Assembly (NCBI GenBank): GCA_977017645.1
Contig: OZ360224.1
Span: forward strand, 177,692,001-177,756,000
Origin: Torpedo marmorata
Taxonomy: Eukaryota
Length of the DNA stretch: 64,000 nucleotides
Direction of reading: 5' to 3'
Shown here: positions 12,801 to 45,800 of the stretch, in pieces
Layout of the letters: every line of letters starts with the position of its first letter
Position numbering within the stretch: the stretch's first letter is position 1
The notes under the pieces: model-generated
What the model saw: the letters and a program-made list of their open reading frames with translations, nothing else
The model's database searches: none
Told to the model about the DNA's origin: nothing
Position numbers and translations under genes: made by a program

Positions 12801-15800
12801 GTGTTCCGGGGCCCGTGGGCCTCTTCCGTAGGCTGCGCCAGCTCGAGCGCCGCCACCGCTTGCGAAGCTGGAGCGTGGCGGCGCATGCGTGGTTGGCTCG
12901 GCGGCGTCTTCGGCCGGGGCCGGCGTATCCATCAGTGCACATGCGCACTGATGGGCTGGGTCGACGCAGGCGCGGTTGTCTCGGCCCCGGCGGCGAGCGG
13001 TTGGAGCCGGGGCCAGCGCGTGGACTACGGAGCATGCGCGGGTGGGACCTGCGCGTTTAAATGGAGGTTCCCCCGCGCGAGTCGACAGTTGAACGCCTGA
13101 GGACGGTGAGTTAGATGTCGACAATCTCTGTCGACCGTTTAATATCGTTTGTTACCTTTGTAACACGTTTAGTACCTTTGGAAATCGTTTAATACTTTTG
13201 GAAATTATTTTTACATTATTTTACATCATTCAAGAAATGTATATATTAAAGTCTGAAGATTACTGCAAGTCTAATGTAAATAAAGGTTTTTGAACATTTT
13301 GGACTTTGCTAGTAAATTAATGAAAACGCGTCGCAGACAAACATCTAACTTAGTCTCCAAGCGACTTTTTATTGGAAGAAGTCGCTACACAACCCTTTGG
13401 TAAACTGTTTTCCCCATTGCCATCTGGAAGAAGGTACCGAAGCACTCGGGCTCGTACGTCCAGACTGTGCAACAGTTTTTTCCTTAAGCCATCAGGCTCC
13501 TCAATTCCTAGATATATATGTGTATTAGCATGTTATAGTTTTTCTATTGTATTATGATATTTATGTACATCTGCCCATGGTCCTGGAGAAACGCTATCTC
13601 GTCTTACTGTGTATATGGTAATGAACGACAAATAAAGGTGACTTGACTTGACTTAGAACCTTCAAGTTCCTGGGAGTTTTTCAGAAGACCTCTCCTGGAG
13701 CCATCATATAAAGGCAACCGTGAAGAAAGCACACCAATGCCTCTACTTTCTAAGAAGTCTGTGGAGATTTGGCATGTCATCAGATACTCTATCAAATTTC
13801 TGCAGGTGCACGTGGAAGTATACTGACTGGTTGCATCACAGCCCAGTTTGGCAATACAGGATCGCAGAAGGCTGCAGAAGGTAACAAACACAGCCAGGTC
13901 CATCACAGGCTATGACCTCCCATCCATTGCAGACATCTATATGAGGTGTTTCTTCAAGAAGGCAGCCAACATCATAAAGGATGCCCATCACCCTGGTCAC
14001 AACCTCTTCTCATTGCTACCTTCAGGCAGAAGATACAGAAGCCTGAAAATCAGCTCCTCTAGGTTCAAGAACAATTTCTTTCCAACAGCTATCAGTCTTT
14101 TGAACCTTCCCTTGGTGCACTCATAGACTGCTCCGACACCACAAAAAGACTGTCTTCTCCATTGCAAGTCACTTTTGTTACACTGAATACCTGAATATTT
14201 ATTATCTACCTTGTATGTTTATTTTCTCTTTTCGTTTAATTCAATTACTGGTAGTTCACTAACATACCGGTATTTTTTTTATTTTTATTTTTTACAGGAA
14301 GCTGTTCGGCTGCAGCAAGTCAGAATTTTGGTGCATATGTACATTGTACAATGTGTATGACAATATACTCATCATCATCACCAAATGCCATGACACTCAG
14401 TTTACCGAGAATATGTGTAAGAGTTGGAGGGCAATGGGAAGTGTAACATGACAATGTTTGACTCAACATTAGAGGCATCGTGGTTCACGTAGCGGTTAGC
14501 ACAACACTATTACAGTGACACCGATCTGGGTTTGAATCCGGCGCTGTCTGTAAGGAATTAAAAACACAATGCTGGAGAAACTCAGCTAGTCAAACAGTGT
14601 ACTTATGTAACAAAGATAAGATACATAACCAACGTTTCGGGCTTGAGCCCTTCATCAAGGTATGAAAAACAGTTGGCAGGTGCCCGGCTCAAGCACAAAA
14701 CTTTGGTTATGTATCTTTATCTTTGGTACATAAAGTATGCTGTTTGACCAGCTAAGTTTCTCCAGCATTGTGTTTTTTTTCTTCAACCACAGTGTCTGCA
14801 GACTTTCGTGTTTTGCTGCTGTCTGTAAGGAGTTTGTACATTCTCCCCGTGTCTGCGTGGGTCTCCTCTAAGTGCTCCAGTTTCCTTCCACCCTCCAAAA
14901 ACGTAGAGAGTTTATAGGTTAATTGGTGTATTTTTGCAGCACGGGCTCGTGGGCTGGAAGGGCCTGTTACCGTGTTGTATCTCTAAATTTTTTAAAATAC
15001 ACTGGGCAGGGGACAGGCTTGACTTCCCCAATGCTTCTGGACGTTGGTAGTGCTCCACAACTCTCAGATATAACACAGATGCCCTATTTGTACAGGAGCT
15101 CCAATTCCACAGGCCTAGTTCCCAGTGAGAGCAGCACCATGGCTCAGCTGTTGGATCGGCTGGCTCACCATCCCAGCTACGTCCAGTGCTGCCTCTGGTG
15201 GTGTGGAGTTTGCATGTTCTCCCTGTGACCACGTGGATTTCCTCCAGATGTTCTGCTTCCTCCCACATCCCAAAGACAATTGGGAACAAAGGTCAATATG
15301 CCACTCTAACTGCCTTTAGTACGTGGGTGAGTGGTAGAATCTCGGCAGAATTAATGGGAAAATAAAATGGAATGAGTGTAGGATTAGTGTAAGGTTGGTG
15401 TGGCCAAAAGGGCTTACTTTAATATTGCATGATGCTTCTAAACAAAGTGCTCAACAATCTCCAAGCTGCTGGAACATAGCAAAGAAAAAAATCCTCCAAA
15501 AAACAGATAATCCTCAAAACAACAGAAGAAACCAAGATATGCATTCATCTGAACTTTCAATCAGTTGATTGTCAAGAATAAACTGCACCCCACTACCACA
15601 CTGACATGTCTGTCCATGGCCTCATGTCGTGCCAAGCTGAGGTCACCTGCAAATTGGAGGAACAACACCTTGCATTCCACCTCAGTCCCCAATCTGACGG
15701 TATGAACTTCCCCACCCCCCCACCACATACCTGTTTATTCAGGTATCTGCCTGATTTTCAGCACTCCTGAAGAAAGGCCAAGCCAAAAACGTCGACTGCC

Positions 15801-18800
15801 TTTTCCTTCCTATGGACGCTGCATGACCTGTGGAGTTCATCCAGCGCTTTTGTGTACTGCACCTAGATCCCAGCACCTGCAGTCTTTCTTGTTTATCTCC
15901 AAGAATAATTTCAAAATTCTCTGACAAATCACTTATGATCATTTCACGGTATCCAATTCCGAGCAATCACATAAAATGAATCAATGAAGAAAGAAGGTTG
16001 TCCACATGATTTTCAAAGCAAGTCAATGATAATACAAAACAATATTATCAATTGATCATTGCAACTTTAGTGGAAAAATAGTACTCCTGATATTGAGGAA
16101 ATCTGAGTGCAAAGCCAGAAACAACAAAAAGTATAATTTCAGAGAAAGGCAATAAATTTTAATCTGAAGATTTTTGTGGTGAGAGTGACAAATTTACAGT
16201 CAGATTGGAGTTACATCCATTTGAAGAAAGTGAATTGGTTTGTGACTATGCTGATCCTAGAAACAGATTGTGTGCACTAGGAGGGAATACTTTCTGTAAG
16301 AGCCTTTTCAAGATTATGGTCAAAGTGGCTTCCAATTGCATTTGTATACAGATATATTTGGGAAATAACACCATGAGACAGTTAATCACAACAGTTCAGT
16401 TTTGGCCAATTCTTTAAAATTAAAGCTACAATCCTCCACAAGGAGGATAGAAAATATATGAAGCAGGTGGCCATCATGTCTGTGCTGTCCACAAATGAGC
16501 GACCAAACCCAATTCCACCTTCCAGCTATTGGTCCACAGTCCCGCAGGCCATATCTCTCCAAGTGGATGACAAGCTCTACAACAATGTAAAGAGGGTGTT
16601 TACCTCTTCCATCATCTCAAGCAGTCATCTTCAGAACCACCTCCCATCCTCTGGGTGACTTTCTATTCTCATGGCCCCTCTCTCCTTCCAACCAATCACT
16701 TCCAATCTGCGACCCCTGGTTTTTGACAACTCTGCTAAGACAACCGTGGCTTGTTGTAAACAATTCCTGGTGTGCTTATCGATAAAGGAGTATTTTTGCA
16801 GTGGAATTTCTTCCCAAAGCAGCAGTACATGGATAAGGAGACAGATTCTCATGCTGTACAAGACAGGGCAGATAGGTGGTCATCACAAGCGGAGGGAGGG
16901 GGGGTGGGGGGTTTAACTGATGACCTACAATATGAGCAGGAATGCAAGGGAACACAACCTTTCCAGTCAATCATCGAGAGAGCTTCCTGGTGATGATGGA
17001 TTTCCGATAGAGTTTTATAAGAAGTTTAAAGATTTATTGATACCTATATATATGGAAGTATTGACTCAAATAAAGGAAACTCATTTATTACCGAAAACAT
17101 TTTTAAATGCTGTTATTACAGTTATACCAAAGAAAGATAGAGATGTATTAAAAACTGAGTCATATAGACCTATATCATTGTTGAATGTAGATTATAAATT
17201 AATGGCAAAAATTTTGACAAACAGATTAGCTAAGTTTTTACCGCTTTTAATACATTCAGATCAAGCAGGATTTATTAAAAATAGATATTCGAAGGATAAT
17301 ATAGCAAGATTAATAAGTTTAATTAATTTGCAAAAAAGGAAACAGGATTTACCTTTGGTGATAACATTAGATGCAGAAAAAGCATTTGATAGATTAGAAT
17401 GGAATTTTTTATTTAAGGTTTTAGAGAAATATGGGTTTGGAAATACTTTTATAAATTGGATTAAGACTATATATAAGGAACCTACAGCTAGAGTAATTAC
17501 AAATGGTCAGATATCATCTAAATTTTCCTTGACGCGATCAACAAGACAAGGATGTCCTTTATCACCTGCTTTATTTGTATTGGCAATAGAACCGCTGGCT
17601 GAAATGATTAGGAAAGATATCAATATAAATGGGATTAAAGTAGGTGCAGAAGAGCATAAAATTAGTTTATTTGCAGATGATGTATTAATATATATGACGA
17701 AATCTATTGGATCGCTTCAACAATTAGCTAAGATACTGAGGGAGTATGGTGAGATATCTGGTTATAAAATAAATTCAGATAAGAGTGAAATAATGGCTTT
17801 ATCTCAAGGAGATTATACTAAATGTAAAGAAGTTACAGGATTTAAATGGGCTAAAGAAGCAATTAAATATTTGGGAGTTAAAGTAGATACAAAATTGGAA
17901 AATTTATATAAATTAAATTATATACCTCTATTTCAGAAAATAAATAAAGATTTGGAAAATTGGAAAGATTTACCTATAACCCTAATGGGAAGAGTGAATT
18001 GTATAAAAATGAATATCTTTCCAAGAGTTCAATACCTTTTTCAATCTATACCTTTTGGAATTGCTCAAAAATTTTTTAAAGATTTAAAAATCATTGTTAG
18101 AAAATTTTTATGGAAAGGAAAATTAGCAAGGGTAAGTATGGATAAATTAACTTGGGAATATGAGATGGGTGGATTACAACTCCCCAATTTTCAATATTAT
18201 TATAAGGCAGCACAATTAAAGTTTATTAATGAATTTTTTGATTTAACTAAATCTACTGCTTGGATTAATATAGAATTGAATAATATAGGGGAAAGATATA
18301 AGGAAGATATTATTTATAAATGGAATTCTAAATTATTATTAGTTAAAAAGAAAAAATCACCGATTATTAAACATTTACTGGAAATCTGGACTCAGTTAGA
18401 CAATGAGATAGGACGAAAAGGGTCATTATCTTTGAATATGCCATTGTATCAGAATTTATTGTTACCTTTTTCTATTGATAATCAATTTTTAAAACTATGG
18501 TTTCAAAAAGGAATTAAGAAGATTAAAGATTGTTTTGAGGCTGGAAGATTTGTTACATTCTCTAGGTTGAAAGAAAAATTTGGAATAACGGATAATACGA
18601 TTTTGGCTTATTATCAGGTTAAAGGATTTTTAGTTGAGAAATTGGGGAATCAATTAATAACTCCAAGACAGGATGGATTAGAATTATTAATTACTAATGG
18701 AAATGTTAACAAGTTTATATCACAAATGTATAGATTACTTCAGAGAAAGATGCCTAAGGTAGGATTGCATAAATCAAGATTAAATTGGGAATCAGCTTTA

Positions 18801-21800
18801 AATATTAGTATAGATGAAAAACATTGGAAAGAATTATGTAAATTGAGTATGACCAAAATTATTAATGTTAGATATAGATTAGTACAATATAATTTTTTTC
18901 ATCAATTATATTTAACACCTAAAAAATTAAAGAAATTTAATCCGGCACTATCAGATATGTGTTTTAGATGTAGGGATGAAATAGGTTCTTTTGTACACTG
19001 TACATGGTCATGTTTAAAAATTCAAAATTTTTGGTCTAAAGTTAAGGATTTTTTGGATAGAATTTTTAATATTATGGTTCCAATGGACCCTATGTTATTT
19101 TTATTTGGAGATATTAAAAAATTTAGTATTAGAAATAGATTGAATATGTATCAAATAGAATTTTTACGAATTGTTTTAGCGGTTTCAAAAAAATGTATCG
19201 CTATTACTTGGAAATCAGATTTAGATTTGAGTTTAGATAGATTACATGCAGAATTACGTTCTTGTATACCATTGGAAAAAATTACATATAATTTACATGA
19301 TAAATATCATTTCTTTTTGAAAATTTGGAGCCCATATATGAGAATTATGGGTATGAATTAATTCTCTAGAAGTTGGTACCGCTGGCAAAAATAACCTCCA
19401 ATATATAAATAGAATTAGCTTGTAATTTGTTTTCTCCTCACTTTAACTCTTTAATTCTTTATTATTCAACTCTTTTCTTTTTTTTTCTTTATAACTAACA
19501 TTCTTTTTGTTTTCTTCTTTTTTTTTTAAGAATAGTGCTAGGGGGGTTGGGGAGGGGAGGGTGGGAGGGTGGGAGGTAATATATCACATGTATTTTAAAT
19601 GATATACTATTTTTGATTCATGTATTTTGTGATTTAAAATTTAAATAAAATTATTTAAAAAAAAAAAAATCATCGAGAGAGCTTCCACACTTGTCTTTCA
19701 ATCCTGCGACTACACAGAGTCAAGATCAAATATCTTGTTGTCTCCGAGGCCTTTATACGTTGAAGGGAACATGTCACAGCCCTCCTGCACTTGCCGTTGA
19801 ATTTGGACAGCTATGACCATATTTATCACTTTGGGAAGCTTTGTACATTGTCATCTCTTGAGCCAGGAAATGATTCAACATACTCACTGCTCAGGAATGT
19901 CACTTTTACCTCACATTCCAGATTTTCAATTGTATTTTTGATGAAAACTACTGTAAAAAAGAAGGAATCTTAACAAGAAAAGCAGAGACCCCATTACAAT
20001 GGAAGAGCTTAAAATAGTAAAATTCACATTAAACAGTGTAATTAATTTTTTTCATTTCCAACAATGACTGCTATCATGCTCATTTATTTTTTGTGATATT
20101 TTCATTAATTGCAACTCCTATTTACACGTTTCAGACCCAATTTTGAGTTAAAAAATTCAGATTCGAGAAAGGGCAACATGCTGTCTGGGTTGATTTCTTT
20201 ACCTTTCCACTGACTTCCCGCACACCGTATCCCACTTGTCCCTCAGCTCGCTCAACATGTCATCGAGTTTCTGGTGATCATCGGCTAAAGTTGTCTTTTC
20301 TTTCAAGGAGCGGCCCGTCCTTACTGTGGTGTCATACACGGAATGTTTTGCTCCGACTGCTTTCTGGAACTCCTACATAATGGCAAAGAAGTCTTGTTAG
20401 CTGCAAAAACTGATCAAAACAAGCCATGAAGTCCAACTGTTCTTCGATATCGTGCATGAACTGAGGCCAATCATCCTTTTCTCTTTGGAGTTCGCTCTGC
20501 AAAGTTTCTAGAAAGAGAGACATATTCCAAAATTTCTCCATAGTAAATAAAAACTGTATCACAAATACTCTGTTGTTGGATTTGGTTGCTGGCTTTGCCT
20601 TGACTTTTTTTTTACTCTACTTCAAAATAGTTGATTAGTGATTGGCAGCATCCTTAAGATGTACAATGTACTTGACAAACTCAGGTTTAATTTTAATTTT
20701 TAATTTACAGATACAGCACGGTAACAGGCCGTTCTGGCCCACGAGCCTGCGCCACCCAAATACACCCATGTGACCAATTAACCCGTATGTCTTTGGAACG
20801 TGGGAGGAAACCAGAGCACCCGGAGGAAACCCACGCAGACATGGGGGAAGAATATACAAGCTCCTTACAGACTGCGCCAGATTCGAACCCAGGTTGTTGG
20901 CGCCATAATAGCGTTGTGCTAACCACTACACTCAGGCTCTTTGTCATTTTTCATGCAATTTGTTTAAAGAGAAGTAGTTACAGCTGTAATGAACGAAACA
21001 TGCCAGGTGACTCGCGCACACACAAATCCACTGTAGTAACATGTTGGACAGGCTGAAGGCATTTTGGCCAAGTCAGTGGTCAAACAAAGAAAAAACTGTA
21101 TATAATTGGAGATTTGATTCTTCTTTATTGAAAAGAAAGGATTTTTGTGAATATATGAGAAGAGAAATTTGGGATTTTTTAAGAATAAATAATAATTCGG
21201 TTAATGATAAATTTATGATATGGGAGGCTTTGAAAGCCTACCTAAGAGGCTTAATAATAAGTTTTTCAGCAAAGATTAAAAAAGATTATTTGAAAGAAGA
21301 AGAAAAATTAGAGAAGGAGATTGAATTTATGGAAAAGGATTTACAGAGAAATAAGTCGATTCTTAAGAGAAATCGTTTAGTGAGGAGGAAATTACATTAT
21401 AATTTATTACAAACTCGTAAGACTGAAAAACTGATAGAAAGAACAAAACAAAGATATTATGAATTAGGGGAAAAAGCTCATAAGGTTTTATCATGGCAAT
21501 TAAAAAAAGAACAAGTTTCTAAAACTATTAATGCTATAAGGAAGAGAAATAATGGGGAAATAACTTATAAGCCACAAGAAATAAATGAATCTTTTAAAGA
21601 ATATTATCAAAATTTATATAGATCGGAGATTGATCATGATGATATGAAGATTAATAGATTTCTATCTAAAATTACTTTACCTAAATTGAATGTTCAAAGT
21701 AAATATTCTTTGGATTTACCTTTTACGATGAGAGAAGTTACTGAGGCAATATCGACGTTGAAAAGTGGTAAATCTCTGGGTGATGATGGGTTTCCAGTAG

Positions 21801-24800
21801 AATTTTATAAAGAATTTAAAGATTTATTAATACCTTTATATATAGAGGTATTGAATCAAGTTACTGAAACTCATTTATTACCGAAGACATTTTTAAATGC
21901 TATTATTACAGTTATACCAAAGAAAGATAGAGATGTGTTGAAAACTGAGTCTTATAGGCCTATTTCATTGTTAAATGTAGATTATAAAATAATGGCAAAA
22001 ATTTTAGCAAATAGATTAGCTAAATACTTACCAAATTTGATACATTCGGATCAAGCTGGATTTATTAAGAATAGATATTCGAAAGATAATATAGCTAGAT
22101 TGTTAAGTCTGATTAATGTATATAAGAAGAAACGAGATTTACCATTAGTAGTAACATTGGATGCAGAGAAGGCTTTTGATAGAGTAGAGTGGAATTTTTT
22201 ATTTAAGGTCTTGGAAAAGTTTGGATTTGGAGATAAATTTATAAATGGGATTAAAACTATATATAAAGAACCTACGGCCAAAGTAGTTACAAATGGACAA
22301 GTATCGCAAAAGTTTTTGTTATCAAGATCAACAAGACAGGGATGTCCTTTGTCACCTGCTCTGTTCGTTTTGGTGATAGAACCTTTAGCTGAAATGATTA
22401 GAGAAGATATAAATATAATGGGAATAAAAGTTGGTAGGGAAGAACATAAGATTAGTTTATTTGCAGATGACGTATTAATATATATGACAAAATCTGTTGC
22501 ATCACTTCAACGATTGGCTATTATATTGACAGAATATGGGGAGATATCTGGATATAAAATTAATTCAGATAAAAGTGAGATTATGGCTTTATCTCAAGGG
22601 GATTATACTAGATGTAAAGAAGTTACGGATTTTAAATGGACTAAAGAAAGTATTAAATATTTGGGAGTTAAAGTAGATACAAAATTGGAAAATCTGTATA
22701 AATTAAATTATATACCTTTATTTATGAAAATAAAAAAAGATTTAGAGCTTTGGAAAGACCTACCGAAAACTTTGATGGGAAGAGTAAATTGTATTAAAAT
22801 GAATGTTTTTCCAAGAATTCAATATCTTTTTCAATCGATTCCTTATGGTATTCCAAATAAATTTTTTAAAGATTTAAAATTTGTTATTAGGAAATTTTTA
22901 TGGAAAGGAAAGCTGGCAAGAGTAAGTATAGATAAATTAACATGGAATTATGAGATGGGAGGGTTACAACTTCCCAATTTTCAGTATTATTATAAAGTAG
23001 CTCAATTAAAGTTTATTAATGAATTTTTTGATTTGACTAAATCGTCTGCTTGGATTAATATAGAATTGAATAATATAGGAGAAACACATAAAGAAGAGAT
23101 TATTTATAAATGGAATTCTAAATTGTTGTCAGTTAAAAAGAAAAATACACCAATTATTAAACATTTGTTAGAAATTTGGTCACAGGTAGATAAAGAAATA
23201 GGTCAAAAAGGATCAATTTCTTTAAGTACACCAATATATCAAAATCCGCTTATACCATTTTCTATGGATAATCAGTTACTTAGGTTATGGTTTCAAAAGG
23301 GAATTAAGATTTTAAAAGATTGTTTTGAAGCTGGTAGATTTGTTACTTTTCAAAGGTTAAAAGAAAAATTTAATATATTAGATAATACAATGTTAGTTTA
23401 TTTTCAAGTTAAAGCTTTTTTGATTGAGAGATTAGGGAATGAATTAGTTGCACCAAGACAAAATGAATTGGAATTGTTAATTACTAAAGTTAATATTAAT
23501 AAATTTATATCACAAATGTATAAACTGTTTCAAAGAAAGATGTCTAAAGTAGGGGCGCATAAATCTAGATTAAAATGGGAACTAGATTTAAATGTTAATA
23601 TAGATGAAAATCATTGGCAAGATTTATGTAAATTAAGTATAACTAAAGTTATAAATGTGAGATATAGATTAGTACAATATAATTTTTTTCATCATATTTA
23701 ACACCTAAAAAATTGAAGAAATTTAATTCAGCATTATCCGATATGTGTTTTAGATGTAAAAGTGAAATAGGTTCTTTTGTACATTGTACATGGTTATGTT
23801 CAAAAATTCAAGATTTCTGGTTGAAAGTTAAGAACTTTTTAGAGAGAATTTTCAATGTTGAGTTTACAATGGATCCTATGTTATTTTTATTTGGCGATAT
23901 TAAAAAATTTAGTATTAGAAATAGATTAAATATGTATCAAGTAGAATTTTTACGTATAATATTAGCAGTTTCGAAAAAATGTATAGCTATTACTTGGAAG
24001 TCAGATGTGGATTTAAGTTTAGAACGATGGCATGCAGAGTTACGTTCATGTATACCATTAGAAAAAATTACTTATAATTTACGAAATAAATATCATTTTT
24101 TCTTGAAAATTTGGGGCCCATATATGAGGATTATGGGTTTAACAATTTAAGTTCCCTAGATATCGGATCCATTGGCGAAAATACCCTCTAAGGTAAATCA
24201 GTTTTAAGTTTGTTGTCTCCTCACTCTATTTTTCTATCTTTCCTTTTTCTTTTTCTCTTTTTCTTTTACTAATATTTTATTTTATTTTTAGAGTAGCGGG
24301 GATATAGGGGTTAGGGAGGGGAGGGTGGGAAGGGGGGGAGAAAATGTAGATCACATGTATTTTTGAAATATATATAAAATTATTTTATGTATTCTGTGAT
24401 TTAAAAATTTAAATAAAATAATTTAAAAAAAAAAAAAAAAAAGTCAGTGGTCAAACTCGCCAACTATTCTCTGAACTGTGGAATCCTTCCATCCATCTAA
24501 CAGGAGAGACTGCTCCTCTAGGATGGCACGTACACACACGATATACAACAATATACATTACCTTGTGGTTTGCAAGTTGCATTTTCACCTTGTCCGGATC
24601 ATTTGCGATTTCAAGGTCAGAATCCAGGTTTTTTTCTGACTCTTCCAACCACTCCATCAATTTCTTCCAGGCTTCTTGGAACTATTGTGGAATGATTTTT
24701 AAAAAATCACTAACATTCAATGCTTTAATAACCAAATACTTGATACTTGTCCTTAAACTAAAGTCCTCTTTTACTCAAATAATTCTTGCACCTTCCAAAA

Positions 24801-27800
24801 AAGTGGAAAATATTATAGGACAAGTGATTTCAAAGACTAATTTAAATGCATTAGAAATTAAAAAGCCTGATCTGGGATCTCTTGTGGAAAACAATTACGT
24901 CTGATATGTCATAATACAAGATTACCTACAATGGAAAAAACTTGCAGCCAGTAACATGAACATTATTTTAAGCAGCATAATCACATACATTGCTTTGAAT
25001 TAAATTCAAGACTCATCCATAAGACTGCAAGAGTCTGCTGAAACACAGGATTTATAATTATTCTCTGTACATCTGCCGGAAGTACAAGCAGACATTGCCA
25101 CAGAGGTAGCAACAGAACATATGAGGCCTTTGTTAACAAGGAAATCAACAGACCATCTTGGCCAGTGAGGTTTGTGGAATTTAAATTTTTTAATTTGGAT
25201 ACAGCACGGTAACAGGCCCTTCCGGCCCACAAGCATGGGCTGCCCAAATACACCCATGTGACCAATGAACCAGCTACCCTGTACGTCTTTGGAACGTGGG
25301 AGGAAACTGGAGCACCCAGAAGAAACTCATGCAGATATGGGGAGAACGTACAAACTCCTTATAGACAGCGCCAGATTCGAACCCGTGTCGCTGGCGCTGT
25401 AAGAGTGCTGCACTAATGGTAGTGTCCTAATACACAGAGAAAAGATGGGTAAGAAACTGGGTAACATAATCAATTCAGCTGTGCACTGCTCAGGCATTTC
25501 TATTCAGCAAAACATGCCAAATATTGGCTGCTTTGTGAGAGAAAACAAATCATTTGGATCACTATTGAATTTGCTGCCTTCTCTTCATGGTTTCTAATCT
25601 TTCTCCTTGTCATGCTGAAAGGTTGTGCATACACAAGCTTGAACTTAAAGGTCAGGCATACAAGGGGTCAAACTGAAAGGTCAGATAAGGAGGCTGCATC
25701 CAGGTCTCATGAGGCCAGGCTGCTGTCACTTGATTACTCATCTCGTGAATTAGTCCCTGTCCCTGTGGGCAGGAATGGGTCTCTGCTTGACGGTTTTCTC
25801 CAAAGAACCCAGAGGATCAGCAATCAAAGGCCAGTGACTTAACAGTACAGGATCATTGTCACGTTAAACTCAAAACTTACTGAAAAATTTAGAAAGCACA
25901 AACTGAAATTTCAATTTAATTCCCATCCTTTTGGTAACGACTAATCTACACACTTGCACTCAGTTGAACAGATGCACACAGTTTAGCACAGCACTCAGTT
26001 GAACAGATGCACACAGTTTAACAGTGCAATACACAAAAAGCTCATACCTTGACAAAGGGTTCAGGCCCGAAACGTTGTTACCCTTTACTTCCTATAGATG
26101 CTGCGTGACCTACTGAGTTTCTCCAGCACTTTTGTGTATTGCACTACAATCATAGTGTCTGCAGACTTTCCGGTTTAACTCCACACAGTTTAACACTACA
26201 ATTTTATCTTCTGATATAATCACACCAGGTTTTTGCTCCTTCATTACTTTCTTCAGATATGCTACCATACCTGTTTTGCGCGCTTCCTCGCATCATCTAG
26301 CCCTCTTCCCCGATCGACAGAACGCTGCACAACCTTCTCCCATCGAGCTTGAACACTGATCAACAAGTTTTTAATGAGCACCACATCCTGCTTCTGACTG
26401 AAGTACTTCAGGTGGGTTCCGGTCTTGTCCAGGTCAATTATTTTCTCACGGTGTGAGTTGACTTCATTGGCAAAAACCTGAAAACATTGCAGCAAAGTGC
26501 AATGTGAGAAGTATGCCAAGGCTCAAGCTTATTATGAAATTATCTGCTTAGAGTCTTAAGTACCTTGTGTTCATCAATCTGGAACAAAATGGTGTCCAGA
26601 ATGAGACTCGGCGATGCGGCTAACGTCAAACTTTGTTCTGCTTGAGTCAACCAGTTGATGAACTCTTGAAGGGAGTTGTGGAACTCTGTGGCTAGATTGA
26701 GGGCCTCCTCCAGTTTAACCTGCACATGAGACATAGATCAATTAGAAAGCCCAATTTAGGTAGTTCGCACAGGATGTTCCTACCTGTCCATCATTTGGGC
26801 TTAGTTCTTCCTCGCCTATATGTGTACTCTGGCTGGCTGGGCACTTTCTTTAGCCTCACTATTTACAACAGAAACCAAGGAGCTTAATGTGCTCATAATT
26901 GCCCCCATTATCACATTTGGACTCAAGCCTATAAGAGATGCTCCTTTTGTTCTAACCAACCTGTTTATTTCTTTTTTCCCAGTTCTGACAAAGAATCCCA
27001 GACCCCTATTTCTCTTTCCTCAGATGCTGTCTAACCTGCTGAGTATTATTTTCTGCTTTTATTATGATCAATTATTTCATCCCAAACACATGTTGCCCAC
27101 TCAGTGAATTCACTCATCAAATTACAACAGGGGCTACTCTTCCAGCATTTTCGGCAAAGTGCCTTTGGACAAGGTATGATTGCTCTATAACGCGGTGGTG
27201 GGCTGTGTTGACATCTAGGGATCTCAGCTGAGGGAGAGCACTGAGCAGCATTCTACATTCACCAAGCATCACCAACCAACTCCGTGACTGCTCGTTCTAT
27301 CACTTCGGGGTGAAGCCTCCCCATTTCCCACAAGCTTCCCACCTGTGACCTCTGCTGAACTATTTAATTCAGATCGTGACCCATTTAATGCTTAACGTTC
27401 ACAATCGTTAAAAATGCTCACTCTTTTTAAAAAAAAACACACTAATTTACAGCGCTAACATTCAATGTCCAAGCTTCTTTTAGTGATCATCGGGTTCAAA
27501 GTCAAATGCAGCTGCTCAAACTCTGATGAAGCACTTTAGGCCGTCCTACTGCTTTTCAGGTTTGGGCTGGACTTGTAAGCTAATCAGGAAAACACATGCT
27601 AATAATCTGCGTAAGGGCATTAAACGGAGATAAAGAACATTGCAGCAAAGGAACAGGCCCTTCGACCCATGATGCCTGCACTGAGAACACCACCAAATTA
27701 AACTAAATATCTGCTGCCTGCTCATATCTCTTCATTCTCTACATATTCATGTCTATGTGTTTTAAATGCTACGAGTGTATCTCCTCCCACCACTACCCGT

Positions 27801-30800: not shown

Positions 30801-33800
30801 AGCAGAGCATTCCCAGCTTTGTTCACCGTCTCCACCGTAGATTTGTGAGCCAGAACGTCATTCTGCAGCACCTAAAAATAGAGAGCATGCCTTTGACAGA
30901 TTCTGGTTCGGAGCTAAGGCCACTGCTCCAGATCTGAGCAGGGCATAGGTTAAAACAATCGTCACAGTGAAGGAGCAAAACCGAAAGAGGCAACCCTGAT
31001 TGCTTTTGTTGGCCATATATATGAACAATTAAGACTTCCAGGGCTTTGGGTCAGGTGAGTACTCAGCTTGTTACCTCCGAATGCCAAGGCACACGCCTCA
31101 CTTGACAGTGCCTTGTTGCATCCAAGCACAAGCAATCTCAAAAGAAAGGAAAGAGGCAAAAATTGAAGAGAATAACAAGCCATCAAATAGCTAAAATTCA
31201 AGAAGGGAATGCTCACGATCCTGATGCCAGTGAAAATCAACATTAGCTTTGGACGCATGTTAGACCTCTGCCAGGCCACTTGGATCATAAGGCTCAAACC
31301 TCCAGAGTGGCCGACTCTTCCAGGGAGTCCCATTCCACTATAGCCCAGGAGAGCTCAGAGCTGAACTCCGCATTCAAGTTACTTTTATGTGAATGGAACC
31401 AAAAATCAATGCTATGAAAGCAACACTGCTTACTGACTCTCTGAAAAATGCAGATTTTGTGGCAGGAATTTATAATTTAAGAAAAGCACAATCTTGCATA
31501 AAACTGAGCTATTTGACAATGCTGTACTCTTTAATTACATCTGCAATCTGAATTTCAAAGATAAGTTATTCTAAGTTGATAAATGATGCCTTGTTAAAAA
31601 GTATCAGACCCTAAATTTTCATTACCAAAACATTATTGATAGGGTTAAAAATCATGAGTATAGGTCAACTAATCTGCAAACATGACCCAGCCAATCATCT
31701 TTCTGCATGGGATCCTGCCATTGCTTTCAGAGCCTGCTGAAGCTACTTCCCATGTATTATGGGAACATATGGCCTTTCAGACACCGACTGACCAACTGTG
31801 TGTGCTTTCAGAGACAAAGGGACCATGGATTGATGCTCAGCAATGCCACTGTCAGCCATTGTCTGGCTAACCCCCTGTTGATCCTGCCACACAGTCCATA
31901 TGAAAAGGAAGCAGCATGATTTTAAGCAGCACAACTAAATTCATCATTCTGGAGATATTGCTTACCAAGGCCATGTAGCATCAGATTTTATGGCTTGTAT
32001 ACCCAATGAGAACAAAATTGCAGGACAAGGGAAAGAGTAGTCATAAAGTGGACAGCAGTGCAGTGAGCAGAGCTCCTGCCTCACAGCTCCAGCAAACTTT
32101 GTTCAACCCTGACCTCTAATGCTGTCTGTGTGGAGTTTGCATGTTCTCCCTGTCACAACATGGGTTTCCCGCCACATCCAGTTGCCTAACTGGTGACTGT
32201 AAATTTCTCCTCATGTGCACGAGTGGCAGGAGAATCAGGGGAATTGATGAAGACGTGCAAGAGAACAGGTTACAGCGAAATAAGTGGGGCAATAGGTTTG
32301 ATAGGATTGCTTCAACAACCAGCACAGACTCAACAGGCCTAATGGCCTCCTTCTGAGTTTTAAGGAAACATGTGAATGGGATTGCAGGCTACTGGCATCT
32401 TTCAGCTGGCTATATAAATTGCAGGAAGGTAAAATCTGCTTCAGCTTTATCATTAGCCATAGCTATAAGAAATCAATTGTTGAAGGTGGTATTACATACG
32501 TGATGTTTGGCAATTGCAATTTCAATAGCTTTCGGATCTCCACCAACTGTTCTCTGTTCATTTAGCAGCTCCTCGGTGTGAGTCAACCAGGTCATCAGCT
32601 CATCAAGGGCATGTTGGAACTGTCCTAGAGCTAATAGAGCACCCTCCAGTTTATGCTGCAAATACAAACAAATACACACTTAAATGGTGGAACCATCCTG
32701 TTAAATCAGAGCATTCAATTCCTTTCTCCATGGAACTTGAGTCTTCCTATCCCATCAAGGGATTTCATCTTCAGATTCCCAGATGGAGAGTTCAAAATCA
32801 TTGTGGTTTTCCATCAATGTACAATGTAAAAGACAAGAATTCAAATTTTAAAAAGCTTTAGGCCAAACAGATTGACAGAGCTAGGGCTTTTCTCTTTGGA
32901 GCAATGAAGGAAGAGAGGTGACTTAATAGAGTATGTAAAGTTATGAGGGAATATAGATAGGGTGGACAGCCAGCACCTTTTCCCCAGGGTGACAGTAGCA
33001 AATACCAGAAGGCATCTGTTTAAGGTGAGAGGAAAGTTTAGTGGAGGGGTCAGAGGCAAGTATTTTTTTAAATTTTTTTTTTTTTTTTTAGAGAGCGGTG
33101 GGTGCCTGGAATGCATTAACGAGGATGGTGGTGGAGGCTGGTACAACAAGGACAGTTGTACTCTTAAGTAAAACATGAAAATCTGTAGACACCGTGGTTG
33201 AAGTAAAAAACACAAATGCTGGAGAAACTCAGCAGGTCAGTGTCTTTTATGTAGCAAAGGTAGAAATACATAACCGACGTTTCGGGCTTGAGCCCTCAGT
33301 TGTACTCTTAGATGGGCACATAGATGGAAGGTAAATAGAGGGATATGGGTGTGAGGGAGGAAAGGGTTAGATTGTTGAGGAGAAGGTTTACGTAGGTCTA
33401 CGTAGGTCCTCCACGGGCCGAAGGGACGATACTGTGGTCTAATGTTTGATCTAGACTGGCATTTACAGACTGTGAAACCACTGTAGATGCATCACCTGTC
33501 GGTTGACGATTTTGCCGTCCAGATTTTCCCAGAAATGTTTCAGCTCATGTAGAGGCTCCTGCACAACCCGATTGTTATTTTCTTCATTGACTTTCTTCAG
33601 CAACAATTCTCCCTGATGATTTAGCCGCTCCATTTCGATCTGCTGCTGATATGCTTCAGTCTTAAAGTGCTGTTGAAGGTCAGCGTATCAAATCAGGTTC
33701 AGTCACAAAACACTACTTTCCAATTCATAAAGTTTAGTCTGTGCTTTGCACACTATAAATGATAGTAATCTTCAGTTCTTTTCATCAGATTAGTTGCAAA

Positions 33801-36800
33801 TTACATACCTTGAGCTCAGCAATTTGTTGTTTCACGGTCTCCAGATCTGTACCAACTGGGGACATTGTGTTCAATTTACTTTCTGCAAAGTCCATCCAGT
33901 CAAACATGGCCTGAATTTAGTGGAGGAAAATAGCACACAAAATCAGACCCAAGTATCTCAAAAAGTACTTGGAACAGCTGCCAAGAATTTCATCATTAGT
34001 ATTGGTTGTGCTGACCAGCCGTTTAAAGCAGTCAAAATTGTCTCCCCAAGTTACAGGTGCAAATGTTAAAATGAAATGGTTCATAAATGTTCAGAGTCAC
34101 TCAGTGAAGCAGCGAAAAGGAGGGGACATAAATGAAGTTGAATTATTGCCATTTCCCTTTATACCAAATACCTAATTTTCTGCTTCAAATAAGGCACTGA
34201 GTTTAATGTACAGTGTATGCTCAAATTATGTTATGGTGTCTGTTTTGTGTCTCTGCTTGTCCAATTTCATCTATTAAGTTCAGAGGTCATGGTTCTCAAA
34301 CTTCCAATGGTATCCTCCAAGACTACACTCTGGAAAGGTATTCAAGGCACTCCTCATTGTAAACATGTCAAAAGCTGCTCAGGAATTAAGAAAGAACAGC
34401 ACAGCCAGGTTCGTTCTACGTCAAAATACCAAAGTTTTGTACTTATATACATCTGAATTACAGATCTACACTTTATCTGATTATCAGGGTTATGATTATC
34501 TAAACTCCTGTTACCAAAAAATATAATTAACCAAAAGTTCTGCATCCAATGATTTCTATTCCACTTACTTATTCCATAATCTGTAATTACTATAAAGCAT
34601 TTCCCGTTCCTATTTCAGCCAAAGTAATCCAATTTGAGAGATGCAATATGTGACAAATTGTATTTTACATTTAATGCTCTTAACGATGCAATATTTACAC
34701 CTAAGTGACGATTCCCTCAACAGACGTCCCAGAGGCATGCTGTGCAAAGATCATTTGGAATATTAAGAGCCTGGAGCTTCAAGTTTGTCATCACCCAGTA
34801 GTTTAAGGGGAAGCAGAATTACAGGAAGCAAGCATCCAATTTCCTATCCAGCTTTTGAAAGGAGATGATCTCAATCCTGTCAGATTATTCTTAATGGACA
34901 GTTTATTTTGGAAATAAAAAGGGAAACAACTGTATAGTGGCAAGGCATTAGATATCAAAATGTGCAAAAGAATTTCAAAATCAGAAAACAGTACCTGCAG
35001 TGCATCCTGGAACTGAACTGCCTCCTGCATTGCTTCATCCAACCGATCAATGCGATCTTTCCATGCCTTATTCAGAGTATCCCAGGTACTATTCAGCTGT
35101 AAACACAAATATTCAGCCTTAGGATAACAGAGACCAATAAATCCTCCTTTAAAAGCAGAAGTACACCTGTAAATCATTTAATTCACTTACCAACAGTGAT
35201 TCTTTTACAATTAGGATACAAAGTATATATAAAACTCAAAATTAACAGATTCATCTGTCCCCATTTCCTCCACCAGTTCAGTATTATCCCTTATCTGAAT
35301 GACTGAATACAGTTCATAAAATGCCTCGAACCTCACTGCACCACCCCAATAGACCAACCCGAGAGACAATTGCAGTGAAGGGTTATTGAGCCGAGAGCCT
35401 ATTGTACTGGCCATTGCACTGATGGCTAGCTGGCAGTTCTATGCGACCTGCCTGCTAGATGCAGCGTGCATTCAACGTGTTCTAGACACGAGCTCTGCCC
35501 CCAGCTTCATCACCAACTCCACAGGCATTTCATCCGTTGCTGAGCCAATGGACCAGTCACATCTCAGACTGTATGCCAGCCATAGTGTGGCTGCTTTAAC
35601 TTGAATAGGACCTAAACCATTAACGCTGCTTCTCCTTCCACAGTTGCTGCCTCGCCTGCTGAGTATTTCCAGCATTTTCACATAACTGCAGGTTTCCAAC
35701 ATCTGAAACTTTTCTAAAGATGGATTGTTTTCTTTCTAACTTTATTTAAATTAATGGATCAGTTGTGCACTAAGTGAATTCATTATTTTTTATTTGTTTC
35801 ATGAGTTTTTTTTTCTGAAGAAAACAGTTTCTAAATCTCTCTGATCCTCCGAGGCCTTTGGAAACAATGAAAGGAACTTCTGAAGCTGTCTACAGCCAGG
35901 TTGCAGATAGACCGCTCCATCTCGGTTAGGCCTCAGGGCGGCTAGAAGCTGCATGGGAGTGTCAAGGGCAGGTCCGACGTACCTCTTAATTCCCCACTGC
36001 CCATCCAAATGGCCTGAGTCAGCAGTGTGACCGCTTGCCTGGGTGAGTGCGGCTTCAACAACACTCAAGAAGCTCGACACCATGCAGGACAGAACACCTG
36101 ATAGGAACCCCCATCCACATCCATTCGCTCACTGCACCACCAAGGCACAGAAGCAACAATGGGGGGTGGAGACATCTTTCAGTGCTCCTCCACAGAGTCC
36201 AACTGCCCGGCCGTCCTGCCCAAAGTCCCCGTACAGGTTGAATCTGTAGAACAGGGCTGCAGCAGTCCTTTTAACATCGATGTCCATCACCACGGTCAGC
36301 AGCCCAGACCACGAGGGTTCCGGGGGAGCAGCGGACCGTCACAGTACATCAGAGCAGGAGAACAGACCCTGCCGAGAAGGAGAGGCCTGGGAGAGAGCCC
36401 TACAGGCTTGGAGACCACAGCAATGGATCAGCGCGAGCTCGGCAGCTTCTGGGAACCAGGTATCGGGTCCGGGATCTGTGTGGGTGCTGAGGGCGAGCAG
36501 GGTTCCCAAAGGGCCTTGGGCGCTGACAGCTTTCTAATCTCTTTGGGGGTTTGGAACCATAAGTTGAGGAGGGGGGTCATGGACGCCTGGAGCTCGGATT
36601 CACCACTGCACTGGACAGGAGGCTGCGCGGCCACAGAGGTGACAGGAGCACAGGAGGAAGCGCCATCGGAGGAGACGGTGGGCTCCACGGACACTTGACG
36701 ACTCTGTGAGGACTCTCTTTATTTCTTGATAGTGCTGCTGGATAGATGGCGACTCTGTGTGCCTTTCAGGACAAACAAAGGAAAAACTTTTTTTTTTAAT

Positions 36801-42800: not shown

Positions 42801-45800
42801 CTTGACTGGATCAAATACCACCTGCCACCGCTCTGCCAAATTTCCAGCTGATCTTGTGTCAATAGGAAACTTGCTAATCATATCCCCGACATTCTCACCC
42901 ATGTCATATACATTACAAACAACAAAGGTCCTAGCACTCCTACCTACAGTACACCACATGTTGCAGACTTCCAGTCAGAGGAACATCATGCAGCACTACC
43001 CTCTGTCTCTTATCACAAAGCCAATTTTGGACTAGTTTGTCAACATCCTTCAGATCCCTCGTACACTAACCTCTGGACAAGCCTACCATGCCAGACCTTG
43101 TCAAAAGCCTCAAAGTCCACGTAAACCATGTCTCCCACTCTGCTTTCATCAATTTTCTCAGTTACCTCCTCAAAAAACTCAATCAGATAGTTAGGACACA
43201 ATCTCCCCTGCACAAAGCTATGCTGACTGCTCCTAATTAGCAGCTGTCTTTCCAAGTGAACACAAATCCTGTCCCTCACAGTCTTCTTCAAACAACTTTG
43301 CTGCCACTGACTCAAGGCTCACCAACTCGTAGATTCCACGCTTATCGCTACTTCCGTTATTGAACAAAGGGACAACATTAGCTATTCTCCAGTCTTCTGA
43401 TAACTCACCCATGAATAACGAAGGTGCAAAGGTCTCCATTTGATCCCCAGAAATCTCCTCCCTTGCTTCCCTCCCTTCAGCACTCCAGCCATGGCTTTAT
43501 TTGATTTGGATATGACAGCGTGGGACCACCATAAGTTCACATGGTGCACACCATTGCAACTTAGAGTATATACCGGTATATATTTTTTTTAATTTTAAAT
43601 TTTAGACATACAGCACGGTAACAGGCCATTTTGGCCCACGAGCCCGTGCTGACCAATTACACCTAATTAACCTACAACCCCCGGTACGTTTCGAACGGTG
43701 GGAGGAAACTGGAGCCCCCGGAGGAAACCCAAACAGACACGGGAAGAACGTACAAACTCCTTACAGACAGCGCGGGATTCGAACCCCGGACCTGATCGCC
43801 GGCACTGTAACGGTGTTGCACCAACCGCTACGCCAACCGTGCCGCCCAGTTGCTCCTTCCCTATGTCAGGGAAAACTCTCTACCTAGAACCACCTTCAGC
43901 AGAAGGACTGCAGTGTTTCAAGAAGGTAGCTCACCTCCACCTTCTCAAGGGCAGCTATGATGGGGCAATAAATGTTGGCCTTGCCAACTGATACCCACAA
44001 ATGTACAAAACCAAACCAAATGTACCTTGGCAATCAATTTTCAAATTACTATTCTGATGAATCGAATGTAGATTGAAATCAAAATGCTAAAAGGGGGCCT
44101 TTCTCCCCCACTGAATTACCTTTGGCACAAAAGTCTTTGTCGGTTCCCTCAGAACGCCCAATCAAGTCATCGCCTCGTTGTTTAAGGGTTTCAAATGCTG
44201 GCTGCAGCTTATCCAGTTCCATGGTGACATTTTTGTTTTCACTGATCTGCTCTCGGATTTTCTCTACCTCAGCCGAGATGGAAGGTGGCTGCCTCAGTCG
44301 GATCGCGATGCGTTCCAAAGCCTCGAGCATTGGGCATATTTTGTCATGAAACTGCAAAATAGTCAGACCAACGGGAAGTGGGTTACCACTGGTATAGACC
44401 TCTGAGAACTAACGGTGTTTGCCCCTGTGCTTTCCCCGCCCCCTCTCTCCAACTCCTCATCCACGTCACCACTTTTCCTTCAGTGTTTGCACACTGGGGC
44501 AGCAGGCATTGCTGTCAGCACACAGATCCAGAGCAATGAACAAATGTGCTGAAGAAACTCAGCAGGTCACACAGCAATTAAAGGGAAACCTACATTTCGG
44601 GCCTGGGTATGATGAATGGCTCAGGCCGGAAACATTGGTTACCTTTTACTTCCTATGGATGCTGATGGCCTGCGGAGTTTCTCCAGCACATGTGTGTACT
44701 TCACTCGACCCCAGTATCTGCAGCCTTTCTTGTTCAGAATCAGAATTTATTGTCATGAACAAGTCATGAAATTCGGGGTTTTGCGGCAGCATCATAGTGC
44801 AAACATTCATATTATAACCATCTTACGACATTACTATAAAAAATATATATAAATAGTGCACGAAAAGTAAGGCAGTGTCTTTGGTTCATTGATTATTCAG
44901 GAATCTGATGGCAGCGGGGAAGAAGCTGTCCTTGTGCCGTTGAGTGCTCGCCTTTAGGCTCCTGTACCTTTTTCCCGATGGTAGCAGAGTGAAGAGGGCA
45001 TGGCCTGGCCTGGGTGGTGGGGGTCTTTGAGGACAGAAGTTGCTTTTTTAAGACACCGCCTCGTGTAGATGTCCTCAATGGAGTGAAGTCTGGTGCCTGT
45101 GATGTCACAGGCCAAGTTAACAACCCTCTGGAGTTTATTCTTGTCCTGAGAGTTGGCGCCTCCATACCAGGCAGTGATGCAACCAGCCAGAATGCTCTCC
45201 ACGGTACACCTGTAGAAGTTTATGAGAGTTTTCGGTGACATACCGAATCTCCTCAGACACCTCACAAAGTATAGCCGCTGGCGAGCCTTCTTTGTGATTG
45301 CATCAACGTGGAGGCTCCAGGACAGATCCTCGGAGATGTTGACACCCAGGAATTTGAAGTTCTTGACCCTCTCCACTACTGAGCCCTCGATGAGGACTGG
45401 GCCGTGTTACCCTGACTTCCTCCTGAAGTCCACAATCATCTCCTTGGTTTTGCTGACGTTGAGCGCAAGGTTGTTGTCGTTACACCATTCAACGAGCTGA
45501 TCTATCTCCCTCCTGTACACTTCCTCATTGCCGTTTGTGATTCTGCCGTCAACTGTGGTGTCATCGGCAAACTTGTAGATGGCATTGGAATTGTGCCCAG
45601 CCACACAGTCATGGGTGTATAACGAGTAGAGCAGTGGGCTAAGCACGCATCCTTGGGGTGCGCCTGTGTTGATAATAAGTGAGGAGGAGACGTTGTTTCC
45701 AATTCGTACTGACTGTGTTTAACACAGATCCAGAGACCAAGGTTTAACCTCAGCCGCTGCCTATTTGGAGTTTGCACTCTTTCTGCCACCACTTGGCTGT

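Follow-up and report, generated by a model that had tools for sequence, protein, structure and literature searches.

A probable 14-nucleotide stagger at doubly primed insertions of a Neptune-type Penelope-like retroelement in Torpedo marmorata

How does a Penelope-like retroelement (PLE) open its target, and do its short palindromic derivatives form a family of their own? Both questions are raised by a 64,000-nucleotide stretch of the Torpedo marmorata genome (contig OZ360224.1, positions 177,692,001 to 177,756,000; hereafter the window), in which inserts at 14557–14817, 26024–26181, 33167–33296 and 44534–45721 (inserts 1–4) are each flanked by a perfect 14-mer. A sequence-only reading had pointed these repeats out. 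Its description is accurate: each 14-mer occurs exactly twice in the window, at the flanks of its insert, and no additional base matches at either end. On any one diagonal, a perfect 14-mer would arise by chance with a probability of about 5e-9. The same reading proposed a fixed 14-nt stagger and a non-autonomous family that looks like miniature inverted-repeat transposable elements (MITEs). Judged by sequence, the inserts are 5′-truncated stubs of an abundant Neptune-type PLE. The PLE protein, probably as a dimer, is likely to nick the two strands of the target 14 ± 1 nt from each other and to start reverse transcription at both nicks, using for each nick one of two start sites on the RNA, which are separated by about 35 nt. 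The matter is of general interest: PLE integration is still poorly defined, and PLE target-site duplications (TSDs) are described as variable.

Two structural terms are needed throughout. Inserts 1, 2 and 4 are two-armed, with two copies of the element end lying head to head and their 3′ ends facing outward; insert 3 is single-armed. The element ends at two sites about 35 nt apart, with one short motif common to both, upstream of the start of the open reading frame (ORF). Arms are accordingly tailed or tail-less. The two end sites match the two internal start sites and the 'tail' described in PMC11167929.

Length of the target duplication and the target motif

Young copies were collected with an exact 69-base internal pattern of the insert 3 lineage (102 matches, 100 of them listed), which picks loci regardless of flanks or structure. 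Together with similarity matches to the insert 3 subfamily, these gave 138 loci, or 107 after removal of 31 duplicates. They comprise 35 two-armed, 59 single-armed and 13 complex copies, the last being excluded from both length histograms. Two entries are to be corrected: L338 was removed as a duplicate in error and later recovered, with a TSD of 14 bp, and L258 stands in the histogram as single-armed and is actually two-armed, with a 14-bp TSD. TSDs were called against a shuffled-flank null (95% score 6.0).

A TSD was called in 32 of the 35 young two-armed inserts. The lengths have their mode at 14 bp, as the earlier proposal led one to expect of genomic copies, and are not broadly spread: 9 bp in one insert, 11 in two, 12 in one, 13 in three, 14 in 12, 15 in seven, 16 in four and 19 in two, with none in three. 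The further claim of exactly 14 bp in every copy fails on the single-armed inserts, which give 7–18 bp or nothing (7 bp in three, 8 in five, 9 in five, 10 in two, 11 in three, 13 in five, 14 in three, 15 in four and 18 in one; none in 28). Duplications of 13–16 bp accordingly occur in 26/35 two-armed against 12/59 single-armed copies (p 3e-7). A separate detector run across all sampled loci found 139 two-armed composites. For 71 older one-tail pairs of the same lineage 65 TSDs were called, 20 of them of 14 bp and 42 of 13–16 bp. Other repeats at the same loci provide small samples: A-tailed long interspersed nuclear elements (LINEs) have TSDs of 14–19 bp in 7 of 10 cases. A 14-bp rule valid for the whole host was rejected, with TSDs in 0/6 ATTCTG-tailed and 1/32 unassigned repeat copies.

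Chance matches to the element ends lengthen a measured TSD beyond the true stagger, and decay shortens it; simulated inserts were passed through the same caller. For two-armed inserts at 2% decay, the log-likelihood (lnL) is −64.8 for a stagger fixed at 14, −74.0 for 13 and −75.7 for 15. Normal distributions around 14 give −63.5, −64.5, −69.0 and −73.2 at standard deviations (SDs) of 0.5, 1, 2 and 3, and a uniform range of 8–20 gives −81.9. At 3% decay the fixed 14 is best (lnL −63.6). For single-armed copies a fixed 14 is rejected, being 18–43 units worse than a broad mixture. The likelihoods for two-armed inserts favour a fixed 14 or an SD of about 1 or less. With the mode of the young two-armed inserts, they allow the proposed stagger to be kept for the cut itself in a softened form, as near-fixed at 14 ± 1.

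That the 14-mers have no sequence in common is correct within the repeats, but in the genome-wide sample a weak symmetric motif lies just outside them. It appears as a mirror image beyond both TSD ends (66 ends of 33 inserts called 14). The base at −3 is a purine in 56 of the 66 ends (p 7e-9) and that at −5 is C in 30 (p 3e-6); A stands at −8 and −7 in about 55%, and T is the first base of the TSD (+1) in 33/66. Read towards the TSD, the motif is approximately A-A-N-C-M-R-R-N, then T. After training on older inserts, its score on young ones is 0.78 ± 0.34, the background being −1.35. For inserts called 15, 16 and 17 (n = 17, 10 and 6), a 'shifted 14' is preferred by 13, 23 and 8 bits. Because the motif fits the 14 spacing better, these apparent 15–17-bp TSDs are taken as 14s with chance extension. 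Eighteen single-armed inserts with 7–11-bp TSDs, none of them used in training, show a mirror motif that peaks 14 nt from the primed end (0/5000 permutations at 14; at most 1/600 for the best of 19 distances). This peak suggests a second nick site at 14, with the overhang trimmed later.

Several observations weigh against a uniform 14-nt cut. Only 12 of the 32 young two-armed TSDs are exactly 14 bp long; seven are shorter, and a few look truly short, such as the 9 bp of L157. A free mixture gives 14 a weight of only 0.68–0.83, with about 0.15 on 15. Many of the older loci were retrieved with two-armed queries. In the distant older subfamily to which inserts 2 and 4 belong, TSDs were called in 11 of 21, three at 14 and four at 10. 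The motif is also imperfect: in cross-validation it scores at offset −4 as well (0.71 against 0.78), inserts called 13 show no preference for a shifted 14 (0.4 bits, n = 9), single-armed copies with 13–15-bp TSDs peak at 13 (n = 12), the 28 single-armed copies without a TSD show no peak, and inserts 4 and 5 of the window score poorly. No interpretable orthologous empty allele was found for insert 3, which lies within a repeat, in contigs of four public runs from two samples covering 25500–34200, and none came to light for any young two-armed insert. Nor is the length exotic, since A-tailed LINEs nearby have 14–19 bp; for the same reason the narrowness of the distribution weighs more than the number 14.

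Paralogous copies of the interrupted repeats show the sites before insertion. Among 112 two-armed inserts with a TSD, 21 lie in host repeats with at least two paralogues sampled, and in all 21 the duplicated word is single-copy in the paralogues. For single-armed inserts 15 of 59 could be tested. The 11 with a TSD have single-copy counterparts in the paralogues, and the four without a called TSD give overlaps of 12, −1, −2 and −15, so that three are near-blunt or deleted. The host copy of insert 3 differs from most paralogues by 3 nt. In two pairs of independent-looking insertions, L307/L338 and L263/L306 (3′ junctions), both members, each on its own contig, sit at an identical position in a multi-copy LINE, and L307 and L338 also have the few junction bases in common. 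The coincidence is due either to hot spots in the target or to a junction that was copied later.

Two arms, two nicks and competing explanations

Young pairs follow a near-strict rule: in 34 of 35 one arm has the tail and the other lacks it, as is the case for 32 of the 33 pairs recovered by the exact pattern. Outer junctions share on average 1.54 nt of microhomology with the template against 0.73 under the null (112/120 ends). Central junctions have overlaps of 0–5 nt or fillers, as expected of end joining. Across 6763 sites the two arms have 12 rare alleles in common, more than in any of 200 shuffles, and both arms of L258 (962–2667) carry the same private deletion junction and filler. Because of this junction and the shared alleles, at least some arm pairs come from one source locus or RNA. 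The 5′ ends of arms are not scattered evenly. Between −108 and −200, 16 of 30 fall at −143 to −134 (p 1e-8, in an interval chosen post hoc), just 5′ of a hammerhead-like core; the sample is blind to 5′ ends much nearer the predicted hammerhead cut. This cluster may mark the 5′ end of the RNA. Hammerhead cleavage was rejected as its cause, the cluster lying about 30 nt upstream of the predicted cut.

A possible sequence of events can be outlined. The cut would leave 14-nt 3′ overhangs, the motif being read once per nick. Each 3′ end would pair over 1–3 nt with a U-rich start motif of the RNA and then be extended. When both nicks are primed, the overhangs would be protected, the two cDNAs would be end-joined head to head, and the full 14 bp would be duplicated. 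When one nick is primed, host repair would probably trim the free overhang, leaving 7–15 bp, a blunt join or a small deletion. In the shortest stubs the cDNAs would often end about 135–145 nt from the tail end, possibly at the RNA 5′ end. With a putative 14-nt 3′ stagger, the nicks would be separated by one turn of B-DNA and lie on roughly the same face, an arrangement that would suit a symmetric dimer. The apparent variability of PLE TSDs would then have a simple cause: the overhang survives in full only where both nicks are primed. Two counter-examples already listed in the sequence-only reading, the copy at 58958–59893 without a TSD and that at 15590 with about 9 bp, are accurately described and are explained as single-armed insertions. 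A bolder version, held with slightly less than even confidence, makes the dimer a ruler. Nearly every insertion would read a pseudo-palindromic site and cut exactly 14 nt apart before copying, with one nick for each fixed RNA start site; the variable or absent TSDs of the literature would be repair scars of single priming, and every PLE clade would possess a hidden fixed stagger of its own, to be read off its two-armed inserts.

The spacing and the arms can each be explained otherwise. In an L1-like scheme the second nick is loosely placed (about 12–17 nt), and 14 is only the mode, with no ruler. Observed lengths do span 9–21, the A-tailed LINEs give a similar range, and at 2% decay an SD of 1 is about as likely as a fixed 14. 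Loose placement is nevertheless unlikely: an SD of 2 is worse by 4–8 lnL units and an SD of 3 by 8–12, and the motif puts the ends of the 15–17-bp calls at a spacing of 14. Under self-priming or fold-back (PMC3846280), the template of one arm would be either the other arm or an antisense RNA folded on itself; the resulting hairpin would then integrate, and the cut made at integration would produce the 14-bp TSD. Some palindromic junctions, the shared rare alleles and inner ends that lie within 20 nt of each other in 9/28 pairs would agree with this. However, the tail-less arm is longer in 12/28 pairs (the tailed arm in 7/28), and therefore neither arm is a plain cDNA copy of the other. Both end types also occur alone, in 38 tailed and 21 tail-less single-armed inserts, a count in which the part of the young sample from insert 3 similarity matches favours tailed ends, and the outer junctions show excess microhomology with the template. 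Arm lengths and solo ends fit priming from both nicks better than cDNA fold-back. Self-priming as a whole is very unlikely, with a small probability left for its antisense-RNA version. A 4-bp deletion used for selecting one arm is absent from all readable partner arms, a point of little weight. The deletion lies in the pseudo-long terminal repeat (pLTR), upstream of the tail end by about 75 nt (near 33240 in the window). It recurs in one arm only of two-armed inserts and in several subfamilies, and is possibly a slippage site of the reverse transcriptase (RT). Its use as a subfamily marker was rejected, as it is confined to one arm even in L258 and recurs in older subfamilies.

The remaining alternative is the earlier proposal that the pLTR inserts form a non-autonomous, MITE-like family, which the autonomous element copies as whole units. 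The proposal is not supported: insert lengths are continuous, most junctions are unique, and the inserts are made of the 3′ end of the autonomous element itself. Short palindromic composites are certainly numerous, and not every junction is private. Among 68 of them, most have their own junction, while five share one hot-spot junction and four other pairs match. L258, moreover, is a two-armed insert from an internally deleted source, a real non-autonomous derivative mobilized in trans. Yet lengths range between about 100 and 4300 bp, no two of the 30 simple young arm-junction pairs are the same, the five hot-spot sharers span young and old subfamilies, and two of the four matching pairs have the tail on opposite arms. 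Sets of similar size were selected by the two-armed query. MITEs have a uniform size and internal structure, which the length range and the 30 unique junction pairs contradict, and identical terminal inverted repeats, whereas here the end of one arm has about 35 additional nt in 34 of the 35 young pairs. Non-LTR retrozymes consist of head-to-tail tandem hammerhead units (bioRxiv 10.64898/2026.07.22.740005); the window inserts are single or head-to-head. A MITE-like family is most improbable, although whole-unit copying may occur, rarely. For annotation, palindromic stubs of this kind should not be filed as MITEs.

The inserts of the window and their source element

The five window inserts differ in subfamily and age, with pairwise identities of about 70–89%. 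Insert 1 split a short interspersed nuclear element (SINE). It lies between TSD copies at 14543–14556 (+), within the SINE, and 14818–14831 (+), and is a two-armed stub with a tail-less arm at 14560–14686 (−) and a tailed arm at 14686–14817 (+). Five paralogous SINE copies in the window carry the 14-mer once, as do 77/77 paired matches at sampled genomic loci. Insert 2, of an older subfamily, has 14-mers at 26010–26023 (+) and 26182–26195 (+) and consists of a 16-bp tail-less inverted arm (about 26024–26039) and a tailed arm at 26040–26181 (+). Its left 14-mer belongs to an 18-bp tandem array (25955–26028, +). Contigs of a related organism on 25500–34200 contain the 3′ part of this insert and have one additional 18-bp unit to its right. 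Because of the array and the extra unit, the TSD of insert 2 is partly confounded and makes a weaker case. Insert 3 (33167–33296, −) is a single tailed arm, 5′-truncated, of the youngest subfamily found (98–100% identical to other copies); its TSD copies are at 33153–33166 (+), the primed (3′) end, and at 33297–33310 (+), the 5′ junction.

Insert 4 lies between TSD copies at 44520–44533 (+) and 45722–45735 (+). Its PLE part (about 200 bp, 44534–44734) is formed by a tail-less arm at about 44534–44605 (−) and a tailed arm at about 44606–44734 (+). The statement that all inserts consist only of pLTR sequence is wrong here: 983 of the 1188 bp of 44534–45721 are a LINE RT fragment (44735–45717, −; RVT_1, E 3.7e-12) within the last few bases of the tailed arm. 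The fragment is about 95% identical to other copies, and the PLE arms are 77–89% identical to theirs; the LINE was therefore probably inserted later. The C-terminal frame of the fragment (44954–45403, −) matches Pfam ALKBH8_N (E 2e-12), likely because the Pfam model includes a segment of LINE origin and not because a host gene is present. Insert 5 (6615–6904) is an old PLE-derived composite whose flanks, 6601–6614 and 6905–6918, match at 13 of 14 positions, as had been reported. The single-armed, 5′-truncated copy at 58958–59893 (+) retains a broken linker and GIY-YIG frame, 3′ UTR, pLTR and tail, with a minimal hammerhead-like motif, read by eye, at 59749–59789 (+). Two further single-armed truncated copies lie at 55218–55905 (−), of an older subfamily and with the end of the GIY-YIG region, and at 15590–15897 (+), where about 9 bp of target are duplicated.

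The coding capacity of the source is seen in a genomic copy, L253, with an 821-aa ORF for an RT, a C-x4-C-x2-C linker and a GIY-YIG/CCHH endonuclease (EN). Its Pfam matches, RVT_1 (E 4.6e-6, 317–496) and GIY-YIG (E 0.0022, 726–760), are both below the curated cut-offs; YIDD and YIGET motifs are visible. The mark of the EN of EN-containing (EN+) PLEs in PMC8557442 is present: a CxxC separates the IY half from the YIG half, and histidines follow downstream. A C-x4-C-x2-C also lies directly upstream of GIY-YIG, in agreement with the linker CX2-5CxxC between RT and EN that defines Neptune and is common to Nematis (PMC8557442). The label 'Neptune-type' is by motif only, its basis being this linker. 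L256 is a full pLTR–ORF–pLTR copy, and the pLTR layout of EN+ PLEs is found: partial tandem, inverted 5′-truncated copy and a tail of 30–40 bp. The 159-aa EN fragment of the window gave no match in a Pfam search. A hammerhead core-like motif with a helix II hairpin is seen in the pLTR by eye and in the predicted fold (z −1.4), and the stretch of L253 equivalent to 59749–59789 gave no Rfam hammerhead match. In L256, as in L254 and L258, a variable tandem repeat is found in the N-terminal region of the ORF. It encodes a spacer rich in Pro, Ala and Thr, which separates the RT from an N-terminal segment that looks conserved.

The PLE family is very large in this genome: a 78-aa EN piece gives 163,408 first-look candidates in 6.2 Gb. 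Some 20% of bases match PLE references in 99 stretches of at least 7 kb (870 kb including the window), a share that overstates the genome-wide one because the set was picked around PLE copies. An insertion bias of Neptune to microsatellites has been hypothesized (PMC8557442); by inspection, few of the 107 young sites are in microsatellites (e.g. L278), and most are in ordinary DNA or other repeats. The window also contains a 30-bp minisatellite of 68.5 copies (4095–6126, 87% matches), two 2.7-kb A-tailed LINE copies that are 82% alike (16989–19669 and 21779–24437), and a 1-kb A-tailed LINE copy with a 17-bp TSD (9654–10653).

Relation to known systems

The two-armed layout is already published, and the probable 14-nt stagger is a new mechanistic detail of a known class. 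L1 twin priming starts cDNA at both nicks, and a single TSD then encloses an inverted segment; the second primer can anneal at various internal positions, and TSDs differ in length. Here, by contrast, both arms start at fixed sites at the element's 3′ end and face outward. The endonuclease of the trypanosome elements ingi and L1Tc is of the APE type. Ingi/RIME and L1Tc/NARTc have a conserved 12-bp TSD (PMC3820030), so that a fixed stagger is not unprecedented among retroelements. These are non-LTR elements with true non-autonomous partners and one primed end, whereas the present element has a GIY-YIG enzyme and a fixed length only when both ends are primed.

For PLEs, TSDs are called variable in a review (PMC6696364). 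Full-text literature searches found neither a fixed TSD length nor a fixed stagger for PLEs in openly available text, a scope that excludes subscription papers, Repbase entries, figures and bioRxiv supplements; PMC12602865 contains no text on TSDs. The EN+ PLEs Pen2 and Pen3 of Adineta vaga (PMC3846280, PMC8557442) resemble the element here in several respects: the RT is followed by a C-terminal GIY-YIG domain, a pLTR is present, copies are 5′-truncated and have an inverted copy at their 5′ end, one arm may have a tail of 30–40 bp, and a TSD encloses the unit as a whole. For them PMC3846280 gives individual TSDs of 8, 9 and 10 bp, or none, in contrast with the narrow mode at 14 found here. That mode is tied to two-armed inserts, and the near-strict one-tail rule and the symmetric target motif further set the present element apart from the Adineta vaga PLEs.

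The closest biochemical counterpart is Poseidon of Anolis carolinensis, which in vitro nicks and extends both strands, has two start sites that define the tail, and is predicted to act as a dimer (PMC11167929). Two-strand extension, two internal RT start sites and AT-rich cleavage are features that it probably shares with the element described here. It belongs to another clade, Penelope/Poseidon, without the Cys linker (PMC8557442), and the main and supplementary text covered in PMC11167929, figures excluded, gives no stagger length or TSD. The 14-nt stagger, the mirrored motif and the one-tail rule are numbers that can be checked in this published in vitro system.

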